Of a stretch of 64,000 bases of DNA, positions 17,300 through 61,201 are shown in pieces (position 1 is the stretch's first letter; the number at the start of each line of letters is the position of its first letter). The translations under genes and the position numbers were made by a program. Origin of the DNA: Sedimentisphaerales bacterium (GTDB lineage: Bacteria; Planctomycetota; Phycisphaerae; Sedimentisphaerales; Anaerobacaceae); assembly GCA_963708075.1 (NCBI GenBank), contig OY970194.1:768001-832000 (forward strand), written 5' to 3'. The notes under the pieces are model-generated. The model saw nothing but the letters and a program-made list of their open reading frames with translations, was not told where the DNA came from and did no database searches.

Positions 17300-18649
17300 A
17301 TGGAAAATCTTCTCAAGAGCACCAATCTCATCCGCAGGGCGTACTGGCTGGTTCAACTCCGATGGGTGGCCATCGGGGTCGTGGTCGGCAGCACATTCAT
17401 CGCCCGAAAGCTCATGGGTGTGTCTCTTCCCGCCTCAACGCTCTACATTATCTCGGCCCTGCTGCTGGTCTATAATTTCATTCTCTATGACCTGCTCAGA
17501 TACTGGACCCGGAACAATCGGGAGCCTTCGCCGACGAGGATCGGTGGCATTCTGACATTCCAGATCTCCGCAGATCTGCTGATCCTGGCGGCGGTGCTGC
17601 ACTTCTCCGGAGGCATTGAGAATCCATTCTCATTCTTCTTCGTATTCCACATGATCATCGCCAGCATCCTGCGTTCCCGGTGGCAGAGTTATTTACAGGC
17701 GACGCTGGCGGTGATTCTCTTTGGAGGCCTGGCGGCCCTGGAGGGTACAGGTGTCATCCGGCATTACGATCTGAGCGGTTTCGCCGGACGCGGCCTGTAC
17801 GCCAATGGAACGTTCGTCATGGGCTTCCTGTTCATCTTCGCTGCCACGCTGTACCTCGTGGTCTACATGACCACGTCGATCAGCGAGCAGCTCCGTACGC
17901 AGCAGGACGACCTGCAGGAGGCCAACAATCTGTTGGAGGAAAAGGATCAGGTCAAGAACGAGTACGTATTGCGCGTAACTCACGATATCAAGGGACATCT
18001 GGCGGCGATCGAGAGCTGCCTGGGGGTTGTCTACAATGGGATGCTGGGGCCTCTGAACGAGAAGCAGAAGGACATGGTGGAGCGGGCCTATCGGCGGACG
18101 ACGAAGTGTATGGACTTCATCATGGCCCTGCTGAAGTTGACGCGGATGAAATTGAGCGGGCAGTTGGAGATGGAGCGGTTCTCGTTGAGGAACTGCGTGC
18201 TCAACTCGCTGGCGTTAGTCCAGAACAAGGCCCAGGCCAAGTCCATAGCGGTGAATCATCGGATCGATCCGGCTGTCGATGAAGTGGTCGGCGAAGCCGT
18301 GCTCATTGAAGAAACCATTACCAACATGCTCTTCAACTCGGTGAAATACACGCCTGACGGCGGCCGAGTGGATATGGATGTCAGACAGGACGGCGGGTTC
18401 GTTCACGTGAGGATCGCCGACACGGGGATCGGGGTTCCGCCGGCCGACATGCCGCGGATCTTCGAGGAATTCTACAGGGCCGAGAACGCTCGGGCCATCG
18501 AGCGGGATGGGACCGGTCTGGGGCTGGCGTTTGCGAAGCAGGTGGTGGAGAGGCATGGGGGCCGGATGTGGGTGGAGAACAATCCTGGCGGGGGCAGTAT
18601 CTTCACGTTCACGTTGCCGAATCACTCGACCGGGCCGGGTGTCGGGTGA
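17300..18649 (+). CDS. Membrane sensor histidine kinase with RegB/PilS-like TM domain
   Basis: About 6 TM helices with SGGIENPF. H-box VTHDIKG, N-box NSVKYT, DTGIG, GTGLGL. Confidence 0.9.
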   Translation: MENLLKSTNLIRRAYWLVQLRWVAIGVVVGSTFIARKLMGVSLPASTLYIISALLLVYNFILYDLLRYWTRNNREPSPTRIGGILTFQISADLLILAAVLHFSGGIENPFSFFFVFHMIIASILRSRWQSYLQATLAVILFGGLAALEGTGVIRHYDLSGFAGRGLYANGTFVMGFLFIFAATLYLVVYMTTSISEQLRTQQDDLQEANNLLEEKDQVKNEYVLRVTHDIKGHLAAIESCLGVVYNGMLGPLNEKQKDMVERAYRRTTKCMDFIMALLKLTRMKLSGQLEMERFSLRNCVLNSLALVQNKAQAKSIAVNHRIDPAVDEVVGEAVLIEETITNMLFNSVKYTPDGGRVDMDVRQDGGFVHVRIADTGIGVPPADMPRIFEEFYRAENARAIERDGTGLGLAFAKQVVERHGGRMWVENNPGGGSIFTFTLPNHSTGPGVG

Positions 18650-21348
18650 GGCGTGCGGTGGGACGTGTGATAGTAGAGGAATCGCCAGAAGGTTTCGAAC
18701 CCGTGGCAATCGACGCAGAGCCCTCTACGTGCGGTGTTCCTTAGAAACACCCCTTGAGGCAGAGATGTCCCGCTTTCGCTTTCGGTGGCTTTCGCGCCGG
18801 CATGCAGGTCATGGCAGGTGGGGCAGGAAATGACGCCGGTGCGCGATCGTTCGCCCGCCTCGCTGAAGGTTGGCATATAGTCCGGATGATCAGGCGAGAA
18901 GCGATTCGTGATCGCCACCTCGGGATGGCCGGCATGTTCGGGAACTCGGTCCTCCGCACATCCATCCTTGCGATGGCAGCAGGCGCAATATTCGCTGCCA
19001 AATTTGTGCTCCGATGCGGAGTCCTGCGCCCAGGTCTTCTGCTCTTTGGACGTGGGATGAACCAGATGGCAGGAGCTGCATGGCCCGGATTCCGCAGCGG
19101 TTTCACCTCGCACGTTGCGTATCTCGGGCGCCGATTGTCTCAGGTCGTGCGATGAGTTGACGATCGCGCCGAGTCTCGCGTGGCAGACGAGGCACAAACT
19201 CGAATCCTGCCTTGGGGTCCTGAGCAGCAGCGGGTCCTGCTCCTTCTTATGAATGTCGTGGCAGGTGTTGCAGTTGATTACGGACTTCGCGCTACGAGTG
19301 GGCAGAATCCCGTTAGCATCCGTCATCTGATTCAACACGTTGCCGAGAGGTTTCCCCACATGCGGGGTGTCCATTGCCGGGGCGATTCCACCTTCCTGAT
19401 GGCAGACCTCGCAGGACTGTTCGTGAGCGCTATTACCCGGGACCGACGCCCAGATGCCATGTTGCCCGCTTGGGCCGTGGATCGGATGGCAATCGACACA
19501 GATCCCCTTGGAGGCGAGACCAAGCTTCTTGCCCCATTCGCTCGCAACGGGATCATGCACGGAACCCTGTACATCCTGCTTGTCTTTGTGGCATTCGGTG
19601 CACAAGTTTTCAGCGGTACGGCGTAGCAGTGCTGCGGTGGTCTTGCTCTTGTGCGGATCATGGCAGGCGATGCAACCAGCCTTGTGGTCATTCGAATCCG
19701 CAATCTGCAATCCGAAATCCGAAATCGAGAGCGGATGTCGCGTCTCCTGCGGCTCCTTCACGGCGTTCGTTCTGTGACAGGCATCGCAAGGGTTGGTTGC
19801 GGACCCGGCGGGGGCATCGGCCGAGACTCGTGCCCAGAGATGAGGGCCTCGGGCGCTATGAGTCGTGTGGCATGCCCGGCAGGCGCCGGCGGAAGAATGC
19901 AGGCCAAGCGACTGGCGCACGGCAGGGGCAAAGTCGGCAGGATCGTGAGGACCCTGCAAGGACTCCGCCATTTCATCGTGGCAGAGAACGCAGAGCTGCG
20001 AGCCTTCCCGCCGCAGGAACGAGCGGGGGGGCTGGCCTGAATTCGGCGGCTCCTCAATCGGTCCTGCGGGATCAGCAGGTTTCTCAGTTGCGATTTCCGG
20101 CGTACGCGGGGTATGAGGATCATGGCACGTCAGGCAGCCGATACTGCCGGTGGCCTCATCCAGGGGCAGCGGGACGGATTTGCCCTCTGGCAGCGGGACT
20201 CCGACAGGATGTGCCTCCACGTACGGCCGGTTGACGGACCCGGGGCCTCCGGCCTTGTGGCACTCCATGCATCCGGAGCTGTGCGGCGAGTTCACGTCCG
20301 GCACATCTCTCGCCCAGCCGTGGATGCGATGACAGGCCCCGCACGGGCCGGATAGCGTTGGTGCTTCACCGCCGGCGTTCACCGTCTGCGGAGAGCTCAC
20401 GCGGAGATCGTGAGGGGAGCCGATGACCGCCTTCTCCTTCTCGTGGCACTCAAGGCAAAGGGAACTGTCATGGTTCTTGTGAATCAGCAGCGGCCAGGCG
20501 CCTGATGCGTCATGGAGGCGATGACAGGAGAGACAGGTAAGCTCACCGCCCGGGCCAAACGTGGCTTTCTCGTTGAGCAGGGTTGCCGGAGGCTGAAACC
20601 CCGGATACGTGTGGCCAATCCTGTGTACCGGCGTGCCAGCCTTGGACGTCGCATCGGGACTCTTGCCGGGGTGACATTCGGTGCACAGTTGCGATGGCGG
20701 CAGGACCAGCATCCAGGCGTTTCTTGCCCCATGCGGCTCGTGGCACGTCTGGCAGATGATCGTGCGACCATCCGCGGAGGTCTTGCCCCCGGCGTCGAGA
20801 ATCGCCTGGGGAATGGGAGAGTCGATCTGCCCGAGCGGATGATGGCGCTCGTCCTTCTGTGCGTGGTCAGCGTGGCAGGCCAGGCAGAGCGACGAATCGA
20901 CATTTGGCTGGCGAAGGAAGATCACCGTCGCGAGATCGGAATTGTCGGGTATCGCGTGCGCCGTGTGGCACGTGGCACAAGTCATGTGTCCCTCGGCATC
21001 GAGAGGAAACTTGTCCGTGGGAATCCGCACTGCCGGAGAGGGAACATGGTCGGTGGTGTGATGACGGGTCGACCAGACTGTGAAACGCGAGTCCGCGACG
21101 GAGCCATCATGGCAGGAAAGGCACATGTCGCCACTGCCGGCCTGGCGGTCGAGAATCGCTTGCATGCGATCTCCCTGTGCATCGCCTCTCTCAAAGGCTT
21201 CCACCCACCGGATATGACAGATGGCACACTCCCTGCTTGAATTGCGTATGACCTCCCGGCCCGGAAGGGATTGGGCCGCTGCCAGCATGAGAAGCAGGAT
21301 GACGCCGCATCGCTGCATGAATCCCGGCGGCAATCTCTGCGTGCACAT
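18622..21348 (-). CDS. 24-heme c-type cytochrome, exported
   Basis: 24 CxxCH motifs (hand count), signal peptide, GGAG RBS before ATG 21348. Confidence 0.9.
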   Translation of the reverse strand: MCTQRLPPGFMQRCGVILLLMLAAAQSLPGREVIRNSSRECAICHIRWVEAFERGDAQGDRMQAILDRQAGSGDMCLSCHDGSVADSRFTVWSTRHHTTDHVPSPAVRIPTDKFPLDAEGHMTCATCHTAHAIPDNSDLATVIFLRQPNVDSSLCLACHADHAQKDERHHPLGQIDSPIPQAILDAGGKTSADGRTIICQTCHEPHGARNAWMLVLPPSQLCTECHPGKSPDATSKAGTPVHRIGHTYPGFQPPATLLNEKATFGPGGELTCLSCHRLHDASGAWPLLIHKNHDSSLCLECHEKEKAVIGSPHDLRVSSPQTVNAGGEAPTLSGPCGACHRIHGWARDVPDVNSPHSSGCMECHKAGGPGSVNRPYVEAHPVGVPLPEGKSVPLPLDEATGSIGCLTCHDPHTPRTPEIATEKPADPAGPIEEPPNSGQPPRSFLRREGSQLCVLCHDEMAESLQGPHDPADFAPAVRQSLGLHSSAGACRACHTTHSARGPHLWARVSADAPAGSATNPCDACHRTNAVKEPQETRHPLSISDFGLQIADSNDHKAGCIACHDPHKSKTTAALLRRTAENLCTECHKDKQDVQGSVHDPVASEWGKKLGLASKGICVDCHPIHGPSGQHGIWASVPGNSAHEQSCEVCHQEGGIAPAMDTPHVGKPLGNVLNQMTDANGILPTRSAKSVINCNTCHDIHKKEQDPLLLRTPRQDSSLCLVCHARLGAIVNSSHDLRQSAPEIRNVRGETAAESGPCSSCHLVHPTSKEQKTWAQDSASEHKFGSEYCACCHRKDGCAEDRVPEHAGHPEVAITNRFSPDHPDYMPTFSEAGERSRTGVISCPTCHDLHAGAKATESESGTSLPQGVFLRNTARRGLCVDCHGFETFWRFLYYHTSHRTPHPTPGPVE
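19695..19729. repeat. Five AATCNNN heptamers inside the 24-heme gene
   Basis: AATCCGC AATCTGC AATCCGA AATCCGA AATCGAG, read as SISDFGLQIADS on the minus strand. Confidence 0.7.
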
Positions 21349-21352
21349 CCCG

Positions 21353-22342
21353 CTACTCCAAATCCATTCGGCAGACGCGGTCCGCCTTGAGCTCAACGAC
21401 GTAAAGGCGTTTGCGCTTGGCGTCCATCGTGATTCCGGTAGGCGTGGTGAACTTGATCGGAGCCCCCTCATGGTCCGCCAGCGCGCCGAGGAAATTCCCC
21501 TTCAGGTCGAATACCTGGACGCGACCGAGGTAACTGTCGGTCACGAACACCTGATCTTGGCAAATCGTGACGCCCTTGGGACGGAACAACTGTCCCGGCT
21601 TGACCCCCCAATCTCCAATGAAGCCGACGAATTTGCCGGCGGCGTTAATGATCTGGACCCGAGTGTTGATCGGCTCGACCACGAGGACGTAGCCGTCAGC
21701 GTTGACGTCGATCAGGAATGGAAATCGGAATTGCCGACGACCCTGCCCGGGGTCGCCCCAATCCTCCTCGAAGCGGCGGCCGGCGAGACTGTAGATGCAG
21801 AGCCTGTGGTTGTCATTATCGGCGATGTAGAGCCGTGCCCGTGCCAGGTCCGCGGCCACATCGGTCGGGTCCGGAGGCGCACTCATGCCGGTCGTTGGCA
21901 ACTGGATGGCTTCCAGCACTTTGCCGTCCGGGGCGAAGACCTGGAAGCGATGGTTCCCGGAATCAGCAACGTACACTTTGCCGTCCCCGTCTGTCGCGAT
22001 GCCGAGGGGGAAGAGGAATTGGCCGGGCTCGCTGCCTTGACTGCCGAAGATGAATCGGAAGGCACCATTGGGGTCGTATGCAACTGCCCGGTGGTGCACT
22101 CCATCGAGGACATACAAAGTGCCGTCCGGCCCGACGGCGGCGTCGCTCGGCATGGTGAAGGGGTCGCCGTTCGGGCCGACGATTTCCGTCGTCGCCCGCA
22201 CACGTACAGACGTCGGACTACTCTTCGGCTGGACTTCTTTCTGGGCCGGGAGAGCGACCGCCGTGAAGCCGAGGATAACCGCCAGAATCACTTCTCCACG
22301 GTTTCGTCCTCCGCTGACCCAACCGCACTTACGGGACGTCAT
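21353..22342 (-). CDS. NHL-repeat six-bladed beta-propeller
   Basis: Repeats such as GQFLFPLGIATD...VYVADSGNHRFQVF. Hydrophobic N-terminus. Confidence 0.88.
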   Translation of the reverse strand: MTSRKCGWVSGGRNRGEVILAVILGFTAVALPAQKEVQPKSSPTSVRVRATTEIVGPNGDPFTMPSDAAVGPDGTLYVLDGVHHRAVAYDPNGAFRFIFGSQGSEPGQFLFPLGIATDGDGKVYVADSGNHRFQVFAPDGKVLEAIQLPTTGMSAPPDPTDVAADLARARLYIADNDNHRLCIYSLAGRRFEEDWGDPGQGRRQFRFPFLIDVNADGYVLVVEPINTRVQIINAAGKFVGFIGDWGVKPGQLFRPKGVTICQDQVFVTDSYLGRVQVFDLKGNFLGALADHEGAPIKFTTPTGITMDAKRKRLYVVELKADRVCRMDLE

Positions 22343-23209
22343 TTGGCTTCGCTTCCCCCGTCCCCGGCTGCGCCGGCTCAGCAGGCTTAAGCAGGCTGGG
22401 CATGTGAAATGTTTCATAACGTGCGACGAGATCTGCCACCTCGGCACTCATGAGGAAAGCGGCCCGGTCCTTTGTGTATCCCAGCGAGGTATAGGGAAGG
22501 AACGCCTTCTGCTGGCTGTGGCAGTCGCTGCAGCGGACAGGTGTTTCAATGCAGCGTCTGTGAATGAATTCGTTGGCAAGCACCTTCTGTTGATCGCTCA
22601 GCTTGTCCCGTCGCTTGAAGTACTCGACAGCGAACGCCTCCTCCTCCTCAAAAGTCACCGGTCGGGGGTCGCCTTCGGAGTCCTTCAGCGGGACGATCTT
22701 CGCGCCGTACTCGCCCCAGAGCTGTTCCGACATATCCGGGCTTGGGCACAACTGCCCGTCGGCGATGTTCGACCATGCGAAACGAGCAGGCGCAAGGTCT
22801 CCTTCTCCCGGACGTGGCAAACCTGGCAGGAAATGAACAGGTTGTGCATATTGAGAAACGCGCGCACCTGGGGACTGTTGGAGTGAGGCGTCTGACCATG
22901 ACACTTGATGCAGAAGTTGTATTTGTCGGCCTCGTACCAGCGGCCAATGTGGTGGAAATGGCCGGGCAGTCTCGGCTCCAGCAACTCCCACTCCCCGAGA
23001 TACCGCACGATCTTCTTCTCCGTGAGCGCCACGACGCTGTCGAAGATTTCCATTTGGGCAACTTGCGTGTCCCTGCCGGCCAGCGGGTCGCCCAGCGTTC
23101 CGACGAGGAACTTGGTCAGCCAGACGGCCGCGATGGCCAGGAGCACGCCCCAGAACCCAACGTATAGGGCCAACAGCAGCTTTTTCGAGAGGCTTGGTTT
23201 GTGACTCAT
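22329..23209 (-). CDS. Membrane-anchored triheme cytochrome c, 1-bp frameshift near 22800-22810
   Basis: N-terminal TM helix, CIKCH and CQVCH in ORF 22685..23209, CSDCH in the next frame. Adding one base joins the frames. Confidence 0.8.
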
Positions 23210-25065
23210 GACACTGCCTCCTGGGCCGCAATGAGACCGTTCAACTCATCCCCGTGTTCCTCCGCCAGGACCCGCGGCGAGATCTTCCCGTTGAGCACCA
23301 TGCCGGACAGCGGCGACAATCCTGGTCTTCCGAGAATTCCCGGGATGTGTACGAGAGTGATATGCGCGACGGCCAGAAGCGACTCGTATGTGTGGGCCAG
23401 ATACGCGATGTTCAGCAGCCAGCCCGGGAACAGGCGGCTCGACAAGCTCTCGGCCCACAGGAGGATCCCTGTGATGCCCAGGAGCCCGATACCCCAGAAT
23501 AGTCCGAGATATTCAAGCTTCTCCTTCCAGCAGAACCGGCCGTGGTTGGGCCGCTTGGGACTGAGGAAAAAGACGTACTTCACTAGCGCGATCAGATCGC
23601 CCAGGTCGCGGCGTTGGGGGATCATCGGCAAGACCAGCACTCGTCGGATGAAGACCCTGAGGCCCCGCCTGTTATCGCGCCGCATGGAGCGCCGGACGTT
23701 CCAGAGAATCATGCCCACGTGAAAGCCAAACCCGACCAGCATCGCCACACCCGCAATGCGATGAATGATCGGTGCGACGTGGATCCCGCCGAAAAGGTCG
23801 TAGAGCGCCGGCGCCCACGACGCCTGCGGGAATTTCATGGGGAATCCGGTCAGGCACAGGACCACGAAAAGGATGACCAGAGACGCATGCTGTATCTGGT
23901 GTCCGCGCGTGAAGCGGCGGATTCCGCACTCTGCGGCCGCCTTCCTCTCAGCCAGTTCCAGAAGATGCTCGATTTCCTTCTCCGCCTGCCGGCTTGGGAA
24001 CAACTCGCGGATCAGGCCGAGCACGTTGAGCGTCAGGATGGGCAGCAGGATACCGAGAGTTGCCAACACGAAGAATAGCGCGACAGCAAACTCGAGCGGG
24101 TGGGTCCGGGGATTGCGAGTGGCATGAACGTCAAAGGATGCCAGCGCCGGCGTGGCGGAATCATGGCAATCCTGTGTGCTGCAGGTGGCGGAGCGATTGG
24201 CGGAATGGACCGAGGAGCGAGGGTCCGTCCTGGAGTGCATCTCGTGCACGCTGTCTTCCCTGGCGTGACAATCCAGGCAATCGGGCGCCATGGCCGAGCC
24301 AAGCAGGACGGCTTTTCCATGGTAGGTCTCCAGGTAGCTGGAGACCACGTCCGGCAGCCCGTGGCGCTTGGTAAAAGCGGCATCTGCATGGCAACTGGCG
24401 CACATGGCAACCACCTCGCGCGAATCGCGGGCCTTGTGCAGACGCGTCGTCACGTGAGAGTAGAAGTATCGCACGAAGTTCTCATCCGTGTGGCACAGGG
24501 TGCAGCGATTGATGGCATGCTCCGAAACGCCGGCACGCATCTTCTTGAAGATCGATATGGGCCGGAACAGAGGGATGTCGTGGCAGTCTTTACACTGAGG
24601 AAAGTCCTCCAAATTTGCATGCGGCACGCCATTGGCATCCATCGGCGCGTGCACGCTTTCCTTCAGGGCTGTTTCCACTTTCGTATGAGTGAACAGAATC
24701 TCGCGGGTGGGCTCCTCAATGTGACACTCGCGCAGGCAGTTCACCGGCTTGGCATTGTCATGCGGTATTTCCTCGATATCCGCGTGGCAGCCCGTACAGG
24801 CAACGCGTGCATGCGGTCCCCGATTGAAGAGCGTCTCGTCCACATAGAAGAGGCGATAGGTGCCTTGCTTGTCCACGCGTGCCAGCCCCCGGAACCGGTG
24901 GCACATGAGACAATTCTCCGGGTCCGCGGCGCGCAGCGGCTGCGACGACATCAGGACCAGTATGAGTGCAAACAAGGCCACCGCGGTCTGCCGGCTGCAC
25001 TTCATCGAGTCCCCTGGAGGACTCACGGCGTCGCTGGGTTGGTTCAACATGGATGACTGCTTCAT
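23206..25065 (-). CDS. Multiheme cytochrome c fused to a cytochrome b membrane domain (CbcL-like quinol oxidoreductase)
   Basis: 6 CxxCH plus CLRECH and CSTQDCH. C-terminal TM helices with His (IQHASL, IHRIAG, LAHTYE) and EKLEYLGLFWG. Confidence 0.85.
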   Translation of the reverse strand: MKQSSMLNQPSDAVSPPGDSMKCSRQTAVALFALILVLMSSQPLRAADPENCLMCHRFRGLARVDKQGTYRLFYVDETLFNRGPHARVACTGCHADIEEIPHDNAKPVNCLRECHIEEPTREILFTHTKVETALKESVHAPMDANGVPHANLEDFPQCKDCHDIPLFRPISIFKKMRAGVSEHAINRCTLCHTDENFVRYFYSHVTTRLHKARDSREVVAMCASCHADAAFTKRHGLPDVVSSYLETYHGKAVLLGSAMAPDCLDCHAREDSVHEMHSRTDPRSSVHSANRSATCSTQDCHDSATPALASFDVHATRNPRTHPLEFAVALFFVLATLGILLPILTLNVLGLIRELFPSRQAEKEIEHLLELAERKAAAECGIRRFTRGHQIQHASLVILFVVLCLTGFPMKFPQASWAPALYDLFGGIHVAPIIHRIAGVAMLVGFGFHVGMILWNVRRSMRRDNRRGLRVFIRRVLVLPMIPQRRDLGDLIALVKYVFFLSPKRPNHGRFCWKEKLEYLGLFWGIGLLGITGILLWAESLSSRLFPGWLLNIAYLAHTYESLLAVAHITLVHIPGILGRPGLSPLSGMVLNGKISPRVLAEEHGDELNGLIAAQEAVS

Positions 25066-25073
25066 GGAATACC

Positions 25074-30657: not shown

Positions 30658-30737
30658 ATATGTCCTCAAGTTATCGAATTTGGGATGCTCAGGGGGGCGT
30701 AAAGGACTCGCTGTATCCATCGAGGGTTTCAAAGGCA

Positions 30738-31214
30738 GTGAAAGAGTCAGGCAACAACGTTGAGCAGAGGGTATTGGCCGCCCTGCAGGAGGGCTTGCCC
30801 CGAAGCCGCACACCCTATCACGATCTGGCTCGCAAGATCGGCATTTCCACGGACGAGTTGCTGACCATCCTGGATCGGTGGAAGCAGAATGGCATAATTC
30901 GCCGGCTTGGCGCGGTCGTCAACCACTTTCAGGTGGGCGTGGGTGAAGGCGCCATGGTGGTCTGGAAGGTCGAGCCCGGCCGCGTGGAGGAGGTGGGAGC
31001 GGTGTTTGCCGGATTTCAGGAAGTGAGCCACGCCTATGAGCGGCAGACGACGCCGGGCTGGCAATATAATGTCTATACGATGGTGCACGGAACGGCTCCG
31101 GAGGAAGTCCAGCGGACGGTCGAGCGGATGAGCGAAGCGACCGGGGTCTCGGAGTATCTGATCCTGGCGACTCGCAGAGAATTGAAGAAGGTGGCGCCGC
31201 GGTACATCGAATGA
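30738..31214 (+). CDS. ahbB: Siroheme decarboxylase subunit beta (Lrp-like)
   Basis: TPYHDLA, IRRLGA, AMVVWKV, SHAYER, WQYNVYTMVHG. Confidence 0.85.
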   Translation: MKESGNNVEQRVLAALQEGLPRSRTPYHDLARKIGISTDELLTILDRWKQNGIIRRLGAVVNHFQVGVGEGAMVVWKVEPGRVEEVGAVFAGFQEVSHAYERQTTPGWQYNVYTMVHGTAPEEVQRTVERMSEATGVSEYLILATRRELKKVAPRYIE

Positions 31215-47804: not shown

Positions 47805-47955
47805 AAGTCATCACACCAACCAGGTAAGGGGAGTGTGATCGTTAGCCCGGGATTGCCTGGCAAGTCCGGCGACGGGGATGGTGTGTCCGCTTTTAGGGAT
47901 AATGGCGGGTCATTTGCTTCTAAAGGGGGCCCGTCGCATTGGACGAAAAACAGGT

Positions 47956-52813: not shown

Positions 52814-53878
52814 ATGAAAATTCGACAAAGCGGCCAACGGAGATGCTCAGCAGGACTTGGGGTCCTTGTGGTCACGCTGCTTCTGGCAGGTGCCGGATGC
52901 GGCCCGCAGCGGCCCGCGCTCTTAAATCGGGCGGAGGCGACACTGGTTTGGCCCAAGCCGCCCGAGCAGCCTCGCATCAGGTACCTCGGAGCGGTGTCCA
53001 CGGAAGCCGACATGGAAAAGCGAGGCTCGCTGCTCGACGGCATCGGTGAATTGCTGTTCGGTGCCAAACCCATGGGCGTTCTGGTGTCGCCCTACGCGGT
53101 GGCCGTGGATCCGACAGGGGTCCTGTACGTGGCGGATTCCGCAGGTGCGGCCGTGCACGCGTTCAACCTCAGAACGCGCGACTACCGCCAGTTTTCCTCG
53201 CTGGGCAAAGAGGCCGGGCTCCAGAAGCCCGTCGCATTGACGACGCTGACCGATCGGGTGTACGTCGTGGACAGTGTCCGGCACGAGGTCTGTGTCTTTA
53301 AGAAGACCGGTGAGTTCGTTTTCGCCTTTGGACGGGATCAGCTCGAAAGGCCCGCCGGCATCGCCTGCCGACGTCCGGAAGGCACGATCTACGTGGCCGA
53401 TGCGGGCAACCATGCCCTTTATGTGTTCAGTCATGAAGGCCAGTTCATCCGGAAGATTGGGACGCGCGGGATCGACGCCGGTCAATTCAATTTCCCCACG
53501 CATCTTCACATCGATGAGGCGGGGCAGCTCTACGTGAGCGACACCCTGAATTACCGCGTTCAAGTACTCGGGCCGGACGACAGGTTCGTGAAAGTGTTCG
53601 GGGACCAGGGCGACCGGCCGGGCAATTTCGCCCATCCGTGTGGCGTCGCCACCGACCATGCCGGAAACATCTATGTAATTGACCGTCAGTTCGAGAATGT
53701 GCAGATCTTCGATCCGCAAGGACGCATCCTGATGGCGTTCGGTGAGGAGGGGAGTGATCCCGGCCAGTTCTGGCTGCCGGCAGGCATCTGTGTCGATGTG
53801 CATGACAGGATCTATGTGGCGGATTCATATAACAAGAGGGTTCAGGTGTTCGAGTTTCTGAAGGAAGGCGGAAAATGA
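52814..53878 (+). CDS. NHL beta-propeller lipoprotein
   Basis: Lipobox GAGC, WPKPPEQPRIRYL, GQFNFPT and YVADSYNKRVQVF repeats. Confidence 0.88.
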   Translation: MKIRQSGQRRCSAGLGVLVVTLLLAGAGCGPQRPALLNRAEATLVWPKPPEQPRIRYLGAVSTEADMEKRGSLLDGIGELLFGAKPMGVLVSPYAVAVDPTGVLYVADSAGAAVHAFNLRTRDYRQFSSLGKEAGLQKPVALTTLTDRVYVVDSVRHEVCVFKKTGEFVFAFGRDQLERPAGIACRRPEGTIYVADAGNHALYVFSHEGQFIRKIGTRGIDAGQFNFPTHLHIDEAGQLYVSDTLNYRVQVLGPDDRFVKVFGDQGDRPGNFAHPCGVATDHAGNIYVIDRQFENVQIFDPQGRILMAFGEEGSDPGQFWLPAGICVDVHDRIYVADSYNKRVQVFEFLKEGGK

Positions 53879-55527
53879 GGAAATGGCCCGCCAGGACGGC
53901 TGTGATATGGCTCGCGACGCTTGGAGTATCGGGCGCGTTGGCCGGCAGTGGCTCGATTCAGGGCACGCCCCACGACCTGTCCCCGGTCGCAGGCGGGGCG
54001 GCCTGCAGTTTCTGCCATACCCCGCACGGAGCCATGCCCGGCACTCCCCTGTGGAGCCACACGCTTTCCACGGCCGTCTATAAAATCTATGAAAGCTCCT
54101 CGCTGGAAGCGAGAGTCGGCCAGCCGACGGGCTCCAGCAAACTGTGCTTGAGCTGCCACGATGGCACAGTGGCATTGACGGAGACCATCACCGGCGGAAC
54201 CGGCGGCGCCTATATTTCTGCCGGGGGCGCCAACCTGGGGACCGACTTATCTGATGACCACCCGATCAGCTTCGTCTATTCATCGGGCCTGTCCGCTGAG
54301 GACTCCCAGATCCGGCCACCCGTCGGGTTGCCCGAGCCGCTGAAACTGGACCGTTCCGGCGAATTGCAGTGCACGACGTGCCACGACGCTCACAACAATC
54401 ACTACGGCAACTTCCTCGTGATGTCCAACACGGGATCGCAGATGTGCGTGAGCTGCCACGACCTGAACGGTTGGACCACGTCGGCGCACGAGAGTTCCGG
54501 TGTTCTGGTCGCCGGGGCCAGCGACCCTTACCTGCAGGAGGGGGATCGCGGAACCCTCGCGGAGGTCGCCTGTCTTGCCTGCCACAGGCCGCACGGCGCC
54601 GGTGGCCATGAAAGGCTCCTCCATTTCGCCCAGATCGAAGACAATTGCCTGAATTGCCACGATGGCATGGTGGCCGGCACGAACATCAAAACGGATATGC
54701 TCAAGCTCAGCCGGCACAATGTGTTCCAGTATCGAGACGTTCATGATCCCACGGAGGTGGCCTCCGCGGCGCCCATGCACGTCGAATGCGTCGATTGCCA
54801 TAATCCTCATGCCGTGCAGCGAGCCCTCGTTCAGCCTCCAATGATCCCCGGCGCCATGCAGAGCGTTTCGGGCGTCACCGTCACCGGCTCCGTGACGGCG
54901 CATGCCCAGTTTGGGTATGAAGTCTGCTTCAAGTGCCATGCCGACAACCCGGAGCGCCCTCTGTCCGACATCACGCGGCAGATCACCCAGACGAATACCC
55001 GCCTCGAATTTGAGCCGTCAGGACCCTCATTTCACCCGGTGGTATCGCCGGGCGTGAATCCGAATGTCCCGAGTCTGATCCCGCCAATGACTGTGGCCAC
55101 GGTCATCAATTGCACCGACTGCCACAGTTCGGATGCGACGTCATCGGCGAGGGGGCCGCATGGGTCCGTCTATCGGCCCCTGCTCGCGGATCGCTACGAG
55201 ACAGTGGACTTCACCCCGGAGAATAGCTCCTCGTACGCGCTGTGTTACCGTTGCCACAGCCGCAACAGCATTCTCGGCGACCAGAGTTTCGCCGGCCACA
55301 GCGAGCACTTGGAAAACGGGATTCCATGCTCGGCCTGTCACGATGCGCACGGCATTAACGCGTCCCAGGGCTCAACGACGAACAACAGCCACCTGATCAA
55401 TTTCGACGTGGTGATCGTTCGGCCGGACCCTGTCACAGGACGGCAGGTCTTCGAGGATTCGGGCGTGTTTCACGGCCAGTGCTACCTGTCCTGTCATGGC
55501 GAAAACCATTCTCCGAAGGGATATTGA
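53875..55527 (+). CDS. 12-heme cytochrome c with an OmcE-like N-terminal tetraheme domain
   Basis: 11 CxxCH plus CYLSCH. SIQGTPHDLS, CHTPH..PLW, NLGTDLSDDHPISF. Confidence 0.88.
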   Translation: MRKWPARTAVIWLATLGVSGALAGSGSIQGTPHDLSPVAGGAACSFCHTPHGAMPGTPLWSHTLSTAVYKIYESSSLEARVGQPTGSSKLCLSCHDGTVALTETITGGTGGAYISAGGANLGTDLSDDHPISFVYSSGLSAEDSQIRPPVGLPEPLKLDRSGELQCTTCHDAHNNHYGNFLVMSNTGSQMCVSCHDLNGWTTSAHESSGVLVAGASDPYLQEGDRGTLAEVACLACHRPHGAGGHERLLHFAQIEDNCLNCHDGMVAGTNIKTDMLKLSRHNVFQYRDVHDPTEVASAAPMHVECVDCHNPHAVQRALVQPPMIPGAMQSVSGVTVTGSVTAHAQFGYEVCFKCHADNPERPLSDITRQITQTNTRLEFEPSGPSFHPVVSPGVNPNVPSLIPPMTVATVINCTDCHSSDATSSARGPHGSVYRPLLADRYETVDFTPENSSSYALCYRCHSRNSILGDQSFAGHSEHLENGIPCSACHDAHGINASQGSTTNNSHLINFDVVIVRPDPVTGRQVFEDSGVFHGQCYLSCHGENHSPKGY

Positions 55528-55528
55528 G

Positions 55529-55927
55529 ATGAATAGAAAAACGATCCTGAAAATTGGCGTCGGAATCCTCGTCATTGGCGGGGGCATCGGCTATTTCATG
55601 TTCCAGGCGATGCAGTCGTCCTGGGCCTACTACTACTCAGTCGATGATTTTGCCGCCGCGGGCGCGGCCGGGCAAGGGCAGTCGTTTCGATTGGCCGGAC
55701 GAGTCAAGCCGGGAAGCATCGAGCGAGACCTGGAAAACGTGACACTGCGATTCACGCTCGCGGGCGCTCAGGCAGAGCTGCCCGTGCAGTACAAGGGTGT
55801 GACGCCGGACAATTTCGTCGAGGACCGGGAGGTGGTCGTGGAGGGCCGTCTGGCGTCCGGCGGCGTGTTCCAGGCCGACACCTTGATGACCCGTTGTGAA
55901 TCGAAGTACCAGGCGAAAGTAGAATAG
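55529..55927 (+). CDS. ccmE: Heme chaperone CcmE, CxxxY variant
   Basis: YYYSV, RLAGRVKPGS, YKGVTPDNF, TRCESKY. Confidence 0.92.
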   Translation: MNRKTILKIGVGILVIGGGIGYFMFQAMQSSWAYYYSVDDFAAAGAAGQGQSFRLAGRVKPGSIERDLENVTLRFTLAGAQAELPVQYKGVTPDNFVEDREVVVEGRLASGGVFQADTLMTRCESKYQAKVE

Positions 55928-55929
55928 AC

Positions 55930-57867
55930 ATGGCGGAATTAGGACAGTTTGCCCTGCGGCTCGGGCTGTTCCTGAGCGTCTACGCGATTCTCGCGGACCT
56001 GCTTGGCCGTTGGCGAAATCGCGGTGAATTGCTCGTAAGCACGCGCAACGCGACGATCGGCTGCCTGTTGTGCTTGACGGTTGCCGCCGCTGCGCTGTTG
56101 GTTCTCCTCGTGCAGGGTGACTTCGCTGTCAATTATGTGGCGGAGCACACCGCCCGCGCGCTGCCGCTTGTCTATAAACTGACAGCGTTCTGGGCTGGCG
56201 CGGCCGGGTCCTTGCTGCTATGGCTGTGGCTCCAGACCGGTTTCATCGTTTTTGCCTTCTCTAAGTGCGGCGGCGGTCTCGATCGATTTTGTGCCGGCGC
56301 CCGGGTGGCGGCGAACCTGGTGGCGGCGTTCTTCCTCCTGGTGCTGATTTTCGACAAGGACCCGTTCCGTACGTCGCTGACGACGCCCGGCGATGGTGCG
56401 GGGCTCAATCCGTTGTTGCAGCATCCGGCGATGGTTCTGCATCCTCCGGCGCTGTTCCTGGGCTATGCCGCGTTCGCCGTGCCCTTTGTGTGGGCGTTGG
56501 CCGCCCTGAAGAGAGAAGACTCGAACGGTTCTCCCGTCCTGTTCGATCGCGCGCGCAATTGGTCGCTGTTTGCCTGGATATTCCTGACTATCGGCATCGG
56601 CCTGGGGGCGTGGTGGGCCTACGAAGAACTCGGCTGGGGCGGCTACTGGGCGTGGGACCCGGTGGAGAACTCCTCCTTGATGCCGTGGCTCACGGGGACC
56701 GCTCTGCTGCACTGTGCGCGTACCTACCGGGCCAATTCCAGGACCGCGACGTGGTTCATGGTTCTGGCGATTGTGACGTTCAGTCTCTGCATCTTTGGGA
56801 CGTTCCTGACACGGTACGGCCTGGTCTCAAGCGTTCACGCCTTCCCCGATCCGGGACTGGGCATCCTGTTTATCGTGCTCCTGGGCATCATCGGGGCGGT
56901 CGCGGGGTTCTTATTCCTGCGCCGCTATTTACAGGACAGGTCGAAATCGCAAGCCGAAGGCCGCAGCGTCCGGTTTGTTGTGTGGAACAACTGGCTCATG
57001 TTGCTGCTGACCTTCGTGGTCCTCGCGGGCACGCTGTTCCCGTTCTTCAGCGGGCTCCTCAGCGACCACCAGATCACCCTGAAGCCCGAGTATTTCACGA
57101 AGATCACAGCCCCCGGCGGGCTATTGCTTCTGCTTCTGCTTGGCGTCTGTCCGCATCTGATCCACCATGGACTCGGCAGAAGTTGGCGAATCCTCGGCGC
57201 GGTCCTTGCCGGCGTAGCGGCGGCGCTGATCTGGGTGTTCGCAAAGAATCTGGCTGTTGCGTATCTTGTCGTCTGCGCGTTCGTCGGATTGAATCTGGCG
57301 GCGGATTTCGTACAGCGGTATATCCGTCGCCGTGCATCTGCCGGCGTGCGTACTCTGTCTCCCGTTTTTCGGTGGTATGGGGCGAGGATTGTGCACATTG
57401 GGGCGCTGCTGACTTTTGTGGGAATCGCCGGCTCCGGGGGATTTGACGTTGAGAAACAGGTCGCCCTCAGGCCGGGTGAACGGACCCAGGTCGGCAAATT
57501 CGAGCTTGCGTATGACGATCTGGATGCGAGTCACGGCCCTAACTTCACCGCCGTGACCGCTGCTGTGTCGGTGTACAAGGGCGACAAGCGGATCGGTGAG
57601 CTTTCGCCGGCCGTCGCCTTCTATGGGCGATCCGACAAGCGCACGAGCGAGGTGGACATCCGGCGGACCCTGGCGAGCGATCTCTACGTCGCCTTGACGG
57701 AAGTCGACAGCGCCACGAAGTTGATTAACCTGACGATCTTTATCAAGCCGCTGATCAATTGGATCTGGATCGGCAGTGGTCTGATGGTGGCTGGGGCAGT
57801 GCTCGTGATCGCCGCCGCGGTCGGTCGCGGGCGAGGCAATTCTCAAGAGGACATGGTTGAAGCATGA
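55930..57867 (+). CDS. ccmF: Cytochrome c heme lyase CcmF
   Basis: GLNPLLQHP, WAYEELGWGGYWAWDPVEN, SVHAF, KPLINWIW. Confidence 0.95.
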   Translation: MAELGQFALRLGLFLSVYAILADLLGRWRNRGELLVSTRNATIGCLLCLTVAAAALLVLLVQGDFAVNYVAEHTARALPLVYKLTAFWAGAAGSLLLWLWLQTGFIVFAFSKCGGGLDRFCAGARVAANLVAAFFLLVLIFDKDPFRTSLTTPGDGAGLNPLLQHPAMVLHPPALFLGYAAFAVPFVWALAALKREDSNGSPVLFDRARNWSLFAWIFLTIGIGLGAWWAYEELGWGGYWAWDPVENSSLMPWLTGTALLHCARTYRANSRTATWFMVLAIVTFSLCIFGTFLTRYGLVSSVHAFPDPGLGILFIVLLGIIGAVAGFLFLRRYLQDRSKSQAEGRSVRFVVWNNWLMLLLTFVVLAGTLFPFFSGLLSDHQITLKPEYFTKITAPGGLLLLLLLGVCPHLIHHGLGRSWRILGAVLAGVAAALIWVFAKNLAVAYLVVCAFVGLNLAADFVQRYIRRRASAGVRTLSPVFRWYGARIVHIGALLTFVGIAGSGGFDVEKQVALRPGERTQVGKFELAYDDLDASHGPNFTAVTAAVSVYKGDKRIGELSPAVAFYGRSDKRTSEVDIRRTLASDLYVALTEVDSATKLINLTIFIKPLINWIWIGSGLMVAGAVLVIAAAVGRGRGNSQEDMVEA

Positions 57868-57971
57868 TGAGCCTGAAATGGATTCTGTTACTTGTATGCG
57901 TAGCCCTAGTGGTCTGGCCGCTACTGGCAAAAGGCCAGGGGCAAGGCAATGGAGATAGGAAGTCATCGTGA
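57864..57971 (+). CDS. 35-aa single-TM protein resembling the CcmI N-terminus (not in the ORF track)
   Basis: MMSLKWILLLVCVALVVWPLLAKGQGQGNGDRKSS*. ATGA overlap with ccmF and GTGA overlap with the next gene. Confidence 0.65.
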   Translation: MMSLKWILLLVCVALVVWPLLAKGQGQGNGDRKSS

Positions 57972-58951
57972 GATACTTTTGGATCACAACGGCTTTCATG
58001 GCCCTGTTTACCCCATCGTCGGGCAATGCTGCGGAGGCGTCGTCGCAGGCTAAGGTCACGGTGGTGGTCACGAATGGCACTGCGAATGGGACAGCCGTCG
58101 AAGGGGATGAGGTTAAGCTCCTGCTCTACAAGGGCCAGGAGCAGATCGATTCACGGTCGGCGAAAGTCGGGCAGGACGGCAAGGCCGTCTTTGAGAACGT
58201 TCCGGCGGGAGAGGGCTTGGCCGTAGTTGCTCGTGCGAAACACCAGAACATGGCCTTCAACAGCCAGCCCGTGCTCCTGGGGTCCGCCTCTGGGGAGGCA
58301 TCGGCGAGTGTACAGGTATTCGATGTCTCCACGGACACGTCGAAGCTGTCCATCGGCACGCATCACATCATAGTCGCAGCACGCTCGATGTCGCTGGAAT
58401 TCAAGGAGTTCATGCAACTGCGCAACCCTTCCGATATGGCGATCACAGGCTCGCAAAGAGACGACCAGAATAGGCCCATCGTGATTGCGATTCGCCTGCC
58501 GAAGGGCTTCAGGGACCTGGCGACGTCCAGCTATCTCGAACAGGAATCGCTGGTCGTGACCGCGGAGGGCTTCTACGATGTTCTGGCTGTACCCCCGGGC
58601 GAGCACGAGGTCACGTTCTCCTACAAGCTCGATATCGGCCGCAGCCCGATGAGCATCTCCAAGGAAATCACACTGCCGACGTCGGAGCTTATGATCTTCT
58701 GGGAACAGGGACAGGGCCGGCTTGAAGGGCTCGGCGAGCCCACCGGCCGGATCACGAACGCCGATGGGATCCCGGTGGAGTACTATCTTCGGGCCAATGT
58801 AAAGCCGGGCGATCAGATCGCTTTTCAGATCTCCGGGCTCAAGGCGAAGCACTCGGACTCAGAGACTTGGATCCTTCTGGCGGTGGTGTTTGCAGCGATC
58901 GTCATTATCGCTCTCCTGCGGCTCCGCGCCGCGTCAACGAGGCCGGGGTGA
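57968..58951 (+). CDS. Exported beta-rich protein with C-terminal TM anchor, within the ccm operon
   Basis: Signal peptide, prealbumin/carboxypeptidase-regulatory-like DGKAVFENVP, terminal hydrophobic helix. Confidence 0.65.
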   Translation: MRYFWITTAFMALFTPSSGNAAEASSQAKVTVVVTNGTANGTAVEGDEVKLLLYKGQEQIDSRSAKVGQDGKAVFENVPAGEGLAVVARAKHQNMAFNSQPVLLGSASGEASASVQVFDVSTDTSKLSIGTHHIIVAARSMSLEFKEFMQLRNPSDMAITGSQRDDQNRPIVIAIRLPKGFRDLATSSYLEQESLVVTAEGFYDVLAVPPGEHEVTFSYKLDIGRSPMSISKEITLPTSELMIFWEQGQGRLEGLGEPTGRITNADGIPVEYYLRANVKPGDQIAFQISGLKAKHSDSETWILLAVVFAAIVIIALLRLRAASTRPG

Positions 58952-58955
58952 TTGC

Positions 58956-59699
58956 ATGCACGAGACAGCGGCAAAAGGCGGTCTGACGAGCATGGCTTTG
59001 AGCGTGCACGGTGTAAGCAAGACGTTCGTGACAAGGCCCGTGTTGAGGGGCATCGACTTTGCCGTGCCGATGGGCCAGGCTGTCTGCCTGTGCGGGATCA
59101 ACGGCGCCGGAAAAAGCACCTTGTTGCGGATCATCGCGGGGCTCCTTCGCCCCGATCACGGCACCGTGATTGTCAATGGTTTTGATGTTCGCAAACACGC
59201 GGAAGCTGCCAAACGGCAACTCGGCATGATCTCTCACGCCAGCATGGTGTACCCGGAGTTGACCGTTTTGGAGAATCTCGCGTTCGCAGCGCGTCTGTAC
59301 GGCGTGTCCGACCGCGCTGCACGAATTGAGGAACTCCTGGCCGGCACAGCGCTGAGTTCATTCCGGCACGACAGGGCCGGGATTCTCTCCCGTGGGCTCT
59401 CACAGAGACTCGCGATCGCGCGAGCCTTGTTGCACAGGCCCACAGTGCTGCTGGCGGATGAGCCATTCACAGGTCTGGATGCCGATGTTTCAGAGCGGCT
59501 GGTCGCGATCTTCGACCAGTTCGTACGCGGCGGGGGCACGATTCTCATGACGACCCACGATACGCGCATGGGACTCCGCTGCTGCCAGCGAGTCGTTGTT
59601 TTGGACAAAGGCGTCCTTGTTCTCGACAAGATGAAGAATGAGATCGATTCCGAGCAGTTCGCCGGTGATTATTTGTCCTATGCAAGGAGCATGAGTTGA
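58956..59699 (+). CDS. ccmA: Heme ABC exporter ATPase
   Basis: GINGAGKS, LSRGLSQR, DEPFTGLD. Confidence 0.9.
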   Translation: MHETAAKGGLTSMALSVHGVSKTFVTRPVLRGIDFAVPMGQAVCLCGINGAGKSTLLRIIAGLLRPDHGTVIVNGFDVRKHAEAAKRQLGMISHASMVYPELTVLENLAFAARLYGVSDRAARIEELLAGTALSSFRHDRAGILSRGLSQRLAIARALLHRPTVLLADEPFTGLDADVSERLVAIFDQFVRGGGTILMTTHDTRMGLRCCQRVVVLDKGVLVLDKMKNEIDSEQFAGDYLSYARSMS

Positions 59700-60415
59700 G
59701 AGAATTGTGGCTGGGTCTGCGAGCCATCATCATCAAGGACATCGTCGTCGAGCTTCGGGCCAGGCAGGTCCTGCCGACGATGGTGGTCCTGGGCATGCTC
59801 ATTGTCTTCATTCTGCGCATGGCCTCGGAGCCCGGCTCAGCAACCATCGGCGGGGCGGTCATGGGCGTCGCCGCCCTGTGGATCGCTTTTCTCTTCTCGG
59901 GCTTGCTGGCCCAGGAGCGGTCCTTTGCCGCCGAGCAGCAAAATGGGTGCATGGACGGGCTGCTGTTGGCCCCGCTCGACGTCGGGACGATTTACCTTGC
60001 CAAGCTGTTGGCCAACGTGATCATGCTGACGATCTTCGAAATGATCGTGGTCCCCATCGCGATCATATCCTTCAATCTGCATATCGCCGGTGGATGGCTG
60101 CGGCTCGCAGCCATTCTGCTGCTGGGCAATCTTGGTATCTCCAGCATCGGGACGCTGTTCTCGGCGGCGGTCCAACTCACGCGGACCCGCGGATCGCTGC
60201 TGAGCATCGTAGTCCTTGTCATCCTCATGCCGATGATGATCCCCGCAACCTTCGCGTTGCTCGTACTGTTCGGAGCCATGCCGGAGCAAGTCGGCGGGTC
60301 CGGCACACTCGCGTTCGTTGGCAGTTTCAGGGCCGCCATCGGCTATATGCTCGCGTTTGACGCTGTTTTCGTCGTGGCCTCCTGGCTGCTTTTTGGGGTT
60401 GTTGTAGAGGAGTAG
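59696..60415 (+). CDS. ccmB: Heme exporter permease CcmB
   Basis: KDIVVELR, RSFAAE...DGLLLAP, IYLAK, 6 TM helices. Confidence 0.88.
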   Translation: MRELWLGLRAIIIKDIVVELRARQVLPTMVVLGMLIVFILRMASEPGSATIGGAVMGVAALWIAFLFSGLLAQERSFAAEQQNGCMDGLLLAPLDVGTIYLAKLLANVIMLTIFEMIVVPIAIISFNLHIAGGWLRLAAILLLGNLGISSIGTLFSAAVQLTRTRGSLLSIVVLVILMPMMIPATFALLVLFGAMPEQVGGSGTLAFVGSFRAAIGYMLAFDAVFVVASWLLFGVVVEE

Positions 60416-60419
60416 GCGA

Positions 60420-61055
60420 ATGAGACGATTGTTGTTCGCGATGGCCTTCGTTCTTCTGGTCACCTCGACCTGGATTGGATTGACGCAGGGGCAGATTGAC
60501 CCCGTGCAGCGCAACATCCTGTATGCCCACGTTCCAAACTCCGTCTGCGCCCTATTGTGTTTTGTTGTCTTGCTCGTCGCGAGCATCGGCTATCTGACCA
60601 CCGGCAAGCAGGCGTGGGACCTGGTGGCGGTTGCTTCCGCGGAGGCAGGACTCGTGTTTGCGACCATACTGAATGCGACCGGCATGCTCTTCTCGCGGGC
60701 GGAGTGGAACGTCTGGTGGACGGCGAGTCCTCGCCTTGTGACCTCAGCGATTCTGTGGTTCCTGTACGCCGTCTATCTGATCCTGCGAGCCAGCCTGCCC
60801 GGTGCGGAGTACCGCAGGGCACGCATCTGTGCCGTCTTCGGGATCATTGCCTTTCTCGATGTCCCGCTGGTGTTTGTCAGCGCCCGCTTCATCCCGGATA
60901 TCCACCGCCCGAATTTCAGTCTTGACTCGCCCTGGCAGAGTGCGGCGTTGATGTTGGGAATGGCCGGCACAGCGGTCCTTGCGGCCGCCTTGATCTGGCT
61001 GCGCACGAGTCTTCTGCGTAGCGGCGTTGAACTCGAAAAACAGCTTCTCCAATAA
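60420..61055 (+). CDS. ccmC: Heme exporter CcmC
   Basis: YAHVP, WNVWWTASPRL (WWD domain), C-terminal His. Confidence 0.9.
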   Translation: MRRLLFAMAFVLLVTSTWIGLTQGQIDPVQRNILYAHVPNSVCALLCFVVLLVASIGYLTTGKQAWDLVAVASAEAGLVFATILNATGMLFSRAEWNVWWTASPRLVTSAILWFLYAVYLILRASLPGAEYRRARICAVFGIIAFLDVPLVFVSARFIPDIHRPNFSLDSPWQSAALMLGMAGTAVLAAALIWLRTSLLRSGVELEKQLLQ

Positions 61056-61066
61056 GGAGTGGAAAC

Positions 61067-61201
61067 ATGGTTTACCTCGTGTTGGGATTCTGCACCGTAT
61101 GGGTGTGCCATTTCGCCTACCTGTTCGTGATCGACCGGCAGGCGAGGCAACTGCGCCACAGGCTCGATGCCCGTGTGAGAGAGACACCAGGTAGCGTATG
61201 A
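61067..61201 (+). CDS. ccmD: CcmD-like 44-aa membrane protein (not in the ORF track)
   Basis: AAGGAG RBS. MVYLVLGFCTVWVCHFAYLFVIDRQARQLRHRLDARVRETPGSV*, directly after ccmC. Confidence 0.8.
   Translation: MVYLVLGFCTVWVCHFAYLFVIDRQARQLRHRLDARVRETPGSV

Follow-up and report, generated by a model that had tools for sequence, protein, structure and literature searches.

An OmcE-type nanowire gene cluster and predicted electron-export locus beside Wood-Ljungdahl genes in a Sedimentisphaerales planctomycete

The window analysed here is a 64,000-nucleotide stretch (G000:C1:768001-832000; contig OY970194.1 of assembly GCA_963708075.1) of the single-contig, 7.5-Mb genome of a Sedimentisphaerales bacterium, which is 92.8% complete. 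It carries a 44-kb locus of multiheme cytochromes next to genes of the Wood-Ljungdahl pathway, and sequence homology indicates that the core of this locus is an OmcE-type nanowire gene cluster, a system that the preliminary description of this DNA had not named. The cluster is proposed to pass electrons from menaquinol to extracellular acceptors, with an oxidative Wood-Ljungdahl pathway as a likely partial source, and the chances for and against this proposal are about even. What is new is the host together with the arrangement of acs, nuo and cytochrome genes; the machine itself is already known. In the following, G-numbers denote the genomes compared, G000 is the source genome, and congeners are genomes of the same genus.

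The standalone tetraheme protein of the locus, which has an N-terminal hydrophobic segment and is counted as an exported OmcE homolog, matches only the OmcE nanowire structures 7TFS (E 9e-13) and 9YUQ (E 6e-8) in the PDB, and a profile search gives E values of 4e-14 and 3e-11 against OmcE structures. Across all 104 aligned homologs, drawn from the best 120 of 1825 matches, neither the four CxxCH motifs nor the four distal histidines of this protein vary. H43, H115 and H165 align with histidines of 7TFS, and H30 is matched by position only. Consistently, the 12-heme protein opens with a full OmcE domain (7TFS, E 2.5e-23). In its minimal form, an omcE cluster comprises OmcE, a large beta-barrel and two each of beta-propeller lipoproteins and further multiheme cytochromes (PMC13712944, excerpt). 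The locus shares all of these parts with the omcE clusters of Geobacter sulfurreducens and Desulfuromonas soudanensis (7TFS, 9YUQ; PMC13712944, excerpt), including the four CxxCH motifs and four distal histidines of the OmcE subunit, the Geobacter barrel being likened by description only. However, one companion cytochrome is here a fusion of an OmcE domain with an octaheme domain, and the neighbours of the cluster are genes for quinol oxidases, Ahb heme synthesis and Ccm maturation, not for glycosylation.

The barrel has no Pfam or NCBIfam match. Its AlphaFold model (predicted local distance difference test score, pLDDT, 84) has about 28 strands, counted from the model, and an inserted beta domain. 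The best fold match is MtrB (Z 17.8, root-mean-square deviation 8.8, 450 aligned residues, 10% identity; the next match has Z 15.9), and Foldseek with the same model returned generic barrels only. Together with this match, an MtrA-like 15-heme protein (E 3e-15) and a protein of the NapC/CymA family recall MtrCAB (6R2Q). Membership in that system was rejected: the barrel belongs to no family scanned, the MtrA-like protein carries 15 hemes, not the ten of MtrA, and stays under the DmsE cut-off, and no MtrC ortholog was found above the cut-off. Barrel and tetraheme homologs that carry names belong to Planctomycetota or Sedimentisphaerales; among 20 distant barrel representatives looked up, one has a taxon name, which is Planctomycetota.

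On the quinone side, the NapC/NirT-type 12-motif protein matches NrfH (E 3e-7), and both it and the 8-motif protein fused to cytochrome b are present, in agreement with the two quinol oxidoreductase types named earlier; the two are plausible quinol oxidases. The fusion is labelled CbcL-like by architecture, as Geobacter CbcL likewise joins a multiheme c domain to a cytochrome b membrane domain, with nine motifs against eight here. CbcL is an inner-membrane quinol oxidase of Geobacter (PMC12133095, excerpt). The 24-heme and cytochrome b-fused proteins gave weak matches only in a PDB sequence search, and the 10-heme protein has no sequence relative in the PDB. The preliminary description had postulated a quinone-to-surface electron path, which the barrel, the OmcE homolog and the propeller lipoproteins, unnamed there, now complete. 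The locus thus very probably encodes an electron conduit that spans the envelope, as judged from these homologies.

The ten multiheme genes of the window carry 24, 3, 8, 8, 10, 12, 15, 4, 5 and 12 motifs, and their total of 101 (93 CxxCH, 4 CX3CH and 4 CX4CH) reproduces the earlier count of about 100 heme sites. Genome-wide, a simple gene caller finds 173 CxxCH motifs in genes with at least three motifs over 7.5 Mb, and the two 44-kb bins that cover the locus are the richest in CxxCH (65 and 22). Family scans also recovered hemA, ahbA, ahbB, ahbC and ahbD, the polyprenyl synthase and the regulators that had been described (three sensor kinases, a sigma-54 regulator and Rrf2). Of the reported ccmABCDEF set, ccmE, ccmF, ccmA, ccmB and ccmC were recovered as well, whereas ccmD is assigned by size and position to a 44-residue open reading frame (ORF) that has no Pfam match. 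The claim that the locus is self-contained and supplies its own cofactors does not hold: hemL, hemC, cobA/hemD and hemB (6.35-6.39 Mb of G000) and mqnA (3.94 Mb) lie megabases away, and only part of the cofactor supply is made in the locus.

The barrel is present in 5/23 congeners, in 8/36 members of the family and in none of 24 genomes of other families in the order; counting OmcE-domain matches raises the island-bearing family members to 10/36. Gene order is maintained in G005, G011, G013, G018, G022, G028 and G032. The cytochrome b module is distributed separately, occurring in 5/23 congeners and not in G018. Of 400 other Planctomycetota genomes, 14 carry the barrel. In each of the 11 of these loci that were examined it stands with a propeller and an OmcE-domain companion, the latter fused in eight loci and split in three, and a standalone OmcE-like gene lies in the stretch examined in eight of them. 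The barrel family comprises 1880 representatives at 50% identity, and the system is therefore widespread. The five phyla listed for omcE clusters do not include Planctomycetota, and the string 'Planctomyc' is absent from the main text, although the supplement may list homologs from this phylum (PMC13712944, excerpt). No publication describing an omcE cluster in planctomycetes was found, judged by title or opening abstract; porin-cytochrome complexes in metagenome-assembled genomes (MAGs) of Planctomycetota/KSB1 are mentioned in general terms (PMC10732223, excerpt).

The Wood-Ljungdahl pathway is complete in G000 (cooS, acsB, acsC, acsD, acsE, metF, folD, fhs and fdh), and a second, intact fhs lies beside folD at 2.83 Mb. 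The earlier distance of about 6 kb between the cytochromes and the acs/fhs/ligase block is true of the CoA-transferase end (6.5 kb), whereas fhs lies 10.6 kb and acsE 13.7 kb away. In G005 and G013, the acs block is followed by fhs, acyl-CoA ligase, CoA-transferase and, on the same strand within about 200 bp, nuoIABCDHJKLMN, which abuts the convergent 24-heme gene. G007 has fhs, a regulator and nuoIABCDHJKLMN on one strand, and the regulator, immediately 5' of this 11-subunit complex I operon, is orthologous to the response regulator at 10819..11235 of the window. The cytochrome module of G011 lies at the opposite, metF end of the acs block. In G000, unrelated genes fill the stretch between the Wood-Ljungdahl block and the cytochromes, and an operon for NuoABCDHIJKLMN without NuoEFG, with 11/11 genes assigned, is found at G000:C1:3737560-3748225 (L078). 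Comparison of these gene orders indicates that the complex I operon originally stood between the acs block and the cytochromes and was displaced to 3.74 Mb in G000. A NuoD ortholog (86-92%) is present in 4/6 island-bearing and 0/17 other genomes of the genus. In G032, which belongs to another genus, an Nqr-like operon takes the place of complex I and lies, like hemL, inside the island. A quinone-reducing, ion-pumping enzyme therefore repeatedly accompanies the cytochromes. The first subunit of this six-gene Nqr-like operon (L024:9881-15348) has a 4Fe-4S dicluster domain, possibly a ferredoxin-type input.

Chimeric assembly, which the preliminary description had named as a possible undoing of its reading, was considered and rejected as an explanation of the adjacency. 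The assembly has many indels. However, G005, G011 and G013 show this gene order on contigs of their own and composition is uniform, which leaves a chimera with next to no credibility. The GC content is 60.1% in the locus and 60.4% in the genome, and the tetranucleotide distance of the locus falls at the 71st percentile among 171 windows. The fhs gene and one sensor kinase gene are split in G000 and whole in congeners, the 3-heme gene is frameshifted in G000 and whole in all four congener contigs examined, and rpoB and rpoC, outside the locus, are also split; the frameshifts are therefore likely assembly errors. A recent mobile genomic island was likewise rejected, as composition is ordinary and no flanking repeats, tRNA or mobility genes were found, the repeat scan covering 10700-47300 only; Rfam and tRNA scans found nothing. 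"Island" fits only in the sense of a gene cluster, not of a mobile element. The suggested taxonomic placement gave a Sedimentisphaerales planctomycete as the host, whose ribosomal protein S19 falls into a 90% cluster with proteins that carry the name Sedimentisphaerales. Presumably, the host belongs to SG8-4/Anaerobacaceae.

The direction of electron flow, said earlier to be unreadable from sequence, is not wholly so, because both the quinone reductases linked to the locus and the redox potentials make export more likely than uptake for acetogenesis. Searches of G000 recovered no si-citrate synthase, SucCD or SdhA/B, Re-type citrate synthase not being searched, and tblastn of true SdhA, SdhB and N-terminal SucC from G002 against G000 gave no ortholog. 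Across the genus, si-citrate synthase occurs in 2/24 genomes and a strong SdhA-type match in 1/24. The absence of a PF02910 match in G000 is partly an artefact, since a weak-scoring flavoprotein gene is present, broken by three frameshifts. As no oxidative enzymes of the tricarboxylic acid (TCA) cycle were found in G000, carbon monoxide dehydrogenase/acetyl-CoA synthase (CODH/ACS) is the sole evident route for acetyl-CoA oxidation. Electron transfer from the CO2/acetate couple to menaquinone yields about -42 kJ per 2 electrons, calculated from midpoint potentials, and is downhill only for oxidation. Therefore, quinol-fed uptake cannot drive acetogenesis, and oxidation to an outside acceptor can pump protons. 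Outward flow is accordingly the probable direction, as far as gene content can tell.

Conversely, electrons might flow inward, with Fe(II), a cathode or another cell as their source, and the Wood-Ljungdahl pathway might fix CO2. Related propeller/large-cytochrome operons occur in SEEP-SRB1, which is thought to take up electrons and has a Wood-Ljungdahl pathway (PMC5539420, excerpt), and an alternative complex III (ACIII)/cbb3-like cluster and NrfAH of G000 could take such electrons. However, the step from menaquinol to CO2/acetate is uphill by the same amount and uptake alone cannot power acetogenesis, dissimilatory sulfite reductase was not found in G000, where the sole sulfite/nitrite-reductase family match sits among assimilatory genes, and the order is described as polysaccharide-degrading (PMC11266412, excerpt). 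Inward flow for CO2 fixation is thus quite unlikely; inward flow to O2 or nitrite is possible given NrfAH and the ACIII/cbb3-like cluster, both recognised by eye. The SEEP-SRB1 16/26-heme operon resembles the locus in its large cytochromes with paired CxxCH motifs (of 15 and 24 hemes in this locus), beta-propellers and Wood-Ljungdahl host (PMC5539420, excerpt). It differs in that no peptidyl-prolyl isomerase was found in the island, sulfate respiration is missing here, and the direction is likely opposite.

From the genes observed, their order, homologies and conservation, we infer the following route. Acetyl-CoA, sugar-derived or imported, would be oxidised by CODH/ACS, the methyl branch and formate dehydrogenase, because no oxidative TCA route was found. 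Reduced ferredoxin or NADH would then reduce menaquinone via the proton-pumping 11-subunit complex I. The NapC-type and cytochrome b-type proteins would oxidise the quinol, and the 8-, 10-, 15- and 24-heme proteins would relay electrons through the periplasm. The barrel, the propeller lipoproteins and the 5- and 12-heme proteins would export or anchor the OmcE subunit, which would polymerise into a filament touching minerals, humic matter or partner cells. More tentatively, and with doubt prevailing, the ancestor of these polysaccharide degraders may have had a single locus running from reverse Wood-Ljungdahl through 11-subunit complex I to an OmcE nanowire, allowing full respiration of complex carbon to CO2 without a TCA cycle, on minerals or partner methanogens, with the OmcE-octaheme fusion as filament base or initiator.

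Several observations weigh against parts of this route. The last CxxCH of the standalone subunit aligns weakly with 7TFS, OmcE-like tetrahemes are widely distributed (PMC13712944, excerpt), and homology is no proof of a filament. AlphaFold2 gives the OmcE-like protein without hemes a pLDDT of 45, and a complex prediction for two copies and four hemes scored 0.01, which is evidence neither way. Other electron sinks were recognised in G000 by eye, namely NrfAH, the ACIII/cbb3-like cluster and a NiFe hydrogenase. Furthermore, frameshifts in G000 can hide genes from hidden Markov model searches, as the flavoprotein gene illustrates. The cytochromes could be periplasmic, storing electrons or passing them on to NrfA or another soluble reductase, in which case no surface filament of the OmcE-like protein would ever form; this would suit NrfAH and the other multiheme modules elsewhere in the genome as well as the wide distribution of OmcE-like tetrahemes. 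However, no CxxCK motif, catalytic subunit or molybdopterin subunit was found in the island, and the large outer-membrane barrel stands beside cytochromes in all 11 distant loci, which makes a purely periplasmic role improbable. That the OmcE subunit forms a surface filament is, on homology, somewhat favoured.

The coupling to the Wood-Ljungdahl pathway meets further counter-evidence. In G000 the complex I operon is 3 Mb away from the locus. The co-occurrence with acs genes proposed earlier as a check holds in part: acsB is present in 4/6 island-bearing and 2/17 other genomes of the genus, one of the latter two matches being a 123-aa fragment (Fisher p 0.02 in the genus and 0.13 in the family, G025 not being counted as a carrier there), but most acsB carriers lack the island (11/16 acsB-positive relatives without a detected island). 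The genus-level value is inflated because one 12-genome clade lacks everything; an rpoC tree (single gene, 23 genomes; G001 had no match) places 12 non-carriers in this clade with support 93. The adjacency itself is physically conserved in G005, G011 and G013, whereas acsB/CdhC was not found in 5/5 carriers tested, G018 (94% complete), G022 (93%), G032 (95%), G025 (88%) and G031 (69%), that is, in five of the ten island-bearing relatives. Obligate coupling of the island to acs was rejected in view of both kinds of exception, and the acs/nuo/island pattern may amount to little more than one ancestral joint loss with a scatter of individual losses.

The export chain might be real but independent, draining NADH or ferredoxin from sugar fermentation, with CODH/ACS as an acetogenic sink or methyl oxidiser and the adjacency an inherited clustering of energy genes. 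Besides the carriers without acsB, this would explain why G022 has complex I and the island but no acs; a single clade loss accounts for most of the correlation, and the ADP-forming ligase fits acetate production as well as activation. However, complex I lies on the same strand next to the CoA-transferase gene in G005 and G013, and the linkage survives differing rearrangements, among them that of G011, where the cytochromes stand at the other end of the acs genes. Independence is thus a possibility of the lesser kind, and coupling of the export chain to the Wood-Ljungdahl pathway, as the gene neighbourhoods suggest it, is evenly poised.

Acetate oxidation by reverse Wood-Ljungdahl with extracellular electron transfer (EET) has already been proposed for Desulfatiglans clade A (PMC13343851), and Ca. 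Geosyntrophus, an EET acetate oxidiser, uses the TCA cycle (PMC13013709). The Desulfatiglans MAGs have no identifiable porin-cytochrome conduit, whereas conduit, complex I and acs appear here as one ancestral locus. PCC3/PCC4 (PMC5566968) and peat EET1-4 (bioRxiv 10.64898/2026.05.27.727921) also combine a porin with multiheme cytochromes in uncultured lineages, and some of the peat cytochromes are described as OmcE-like; compared by description only, they belong to Proteobacteria, Acidobacteriota and Verrucomicrobiota, PCC4 naming some Planctomycetes. A class-wide survey describes Sedimentisphaerales as strictly fermentative, with the respiratory chain missing (PMC11266412, excerpt), and a separate paper from 2026 counts the electron acceptors used by SG8-4 among the poorly characterised ones (PMC13127444, excerpt). 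Sedimentisphaerales are abundant in anoxic sediments, and the locus names a testable acceptor route for a group called fermentative and adds a candidate nanowire from a phylum not listed for omcE clusters. If the route is true, one organism would join the degradation of polysaccharides to electron flow towards iron, humic matter or syntrophic partners. The start and anchoring of OmcE filaments are stated to be an open question (PMC13712944, excerpt), on which the recurring OmcE-octaheme fusion gives a handle.

Table 1. Genes of the Wood-Ljungdahl side, the gap and the cytochrome locus, in window positions. Lipobox-like motifs were assigned by a crude pattern.
Feature	Position	Strand	Basis
cooS, acsB, acsC, fdhA-gltD-nuoF-nuoE-like and metF-like genes	just upstream of window		
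End of CODH/ACS block: acsV C-terminus, cooC-like, acsD, acsE	13..3561	+	family scans
fhs, frameshift-split	4777..6736	+	family scans; whole in congeners
ADP-forming acyl-CoA ligase; acetyl-CoA hydrolase/CoA-transferase-GNAT fusion	6752..10785	+	
Response regulator	10819..11235	+	
Response regulator and membrane sensor kinase	16896..18649	+	
24-heme cytochrome, paired CxxCH repeats	18622..21471	-	
NHL beta-propeller protein	21353..22447	-	
Membrane-anchored 3-heme cytochrome, frameshifted	22329..23209	-	
8-heme domain fused to cytochrome b domain; predicted quinol oxidase	23206..25077	-	
8-heme cytochrome	25074..26159	-	
10-heme cytochrome, internally duplicated	26162..28264	-	
PAS sensor kinase, frameshifted	28695..30490	+	
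ahbB, CcsA-like membrane protein, hemA, ahbD, ahbC	30660..35815	+	
Sensor kinase, sigma-54 response regulator, Rrf2 regulator	35994..39792	+	
ahbA and long-chain polyprenyl diphosphate synthase	39921..41698	+	
NapC/NirT (NrfH-like) domain joined to 8 more heme motifs; predicted quinol dehydrogenase	41795..43189	+	
Conserved exported protein, no known family	43114..44343	+	
15-heme MtrA/DmsE-like cytochrome	44408..45781	+	
TPR protein	45851..46849	+	
OmcE-type tetraheme, candidate filament subunit: 4 CxxCH with H30, H43, H115, H165	47184..47804	+	
NHL beta-propeller, lipobox-like motif	47878..49401	+	
5-heme cytochrome, lipobox-like motif	49468..50664	+	
Large predicted outer-membrane beta-barrel, 693 aa, lipobox-like motif	50706..52787	+	
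NHL beta-propeller, lipobox-like motif	52814..53878	+	
12-heme fusion: complete OmcE domain (residues 13-195) and 8-heme domain	53875..55527	+	
ccmE, ccmF, membrane protein without family match, ccmA, ccmB, ccmC, ccmD-like ORF	55496..61201	+	
ccmD-like ORF, 44 aa	61067-61201	+	

Further OmcE-like and quinol-related genes lie outside the locus. A second standalone omcE-like gene at G000:C1:6459356-6459974 (L079) is broken by one frameshift, and G011 has a second omcE-like copy beside a type II secretion/pilin-like cluster (L087). At G000:C1:266718-272382, a 13-heme cytochrome, a thioredoxin/TPR-like protein, a Rieske protein, a cytochrome b and a cytochrome b/5-heme fusion were recognised by eye, and this module is a candidate third quinol oxidase on the strength of its sequences. 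Membrane cytochromes with 5 and 13 hemes are found close to mqnA and a radical SAM gene at G000:C1:3942691-3957308. The region G000:C1:7199125-7224975, by eye, holds heavily frameshifted pieces of alternative complex III and a cbb3-like oxidase beside a 14-subunit complex I, which suggests low-oxygen respiration.

Paralogous membrane sensor kinases of the same family, at 17300-18649 of the window, G000:C1:745562-746920 and 3637002-3638375, stand beside the island, the acs genes and a NiFe hydrogenase operon, hinting at shared regulation. The stretch 11285-16414 of the window, where congeners carry nuo, holds sialate O-acetylesterase-like, PQQ-propeller, enolase-family and helix-turn-helix (HTH) genes. 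The MetF encoded at L011:1485-3954 (minus strand) carries a MetV-like domain and another domain, of 340 aa, that matches no Pfam family; the gene is apparently a single reading frame in G013, and an 851-aa paralog lies at 6.92 Mb. The proteins without family match at 43114-44343 and 57968-58951 of the window are retained in the cluster across genera and are possibly assembly or maturation factors. An NmrA-like and DUF2867 gene at 61198-62726, split in two in G000, is kept 3' of ccmD in G005 and G013.

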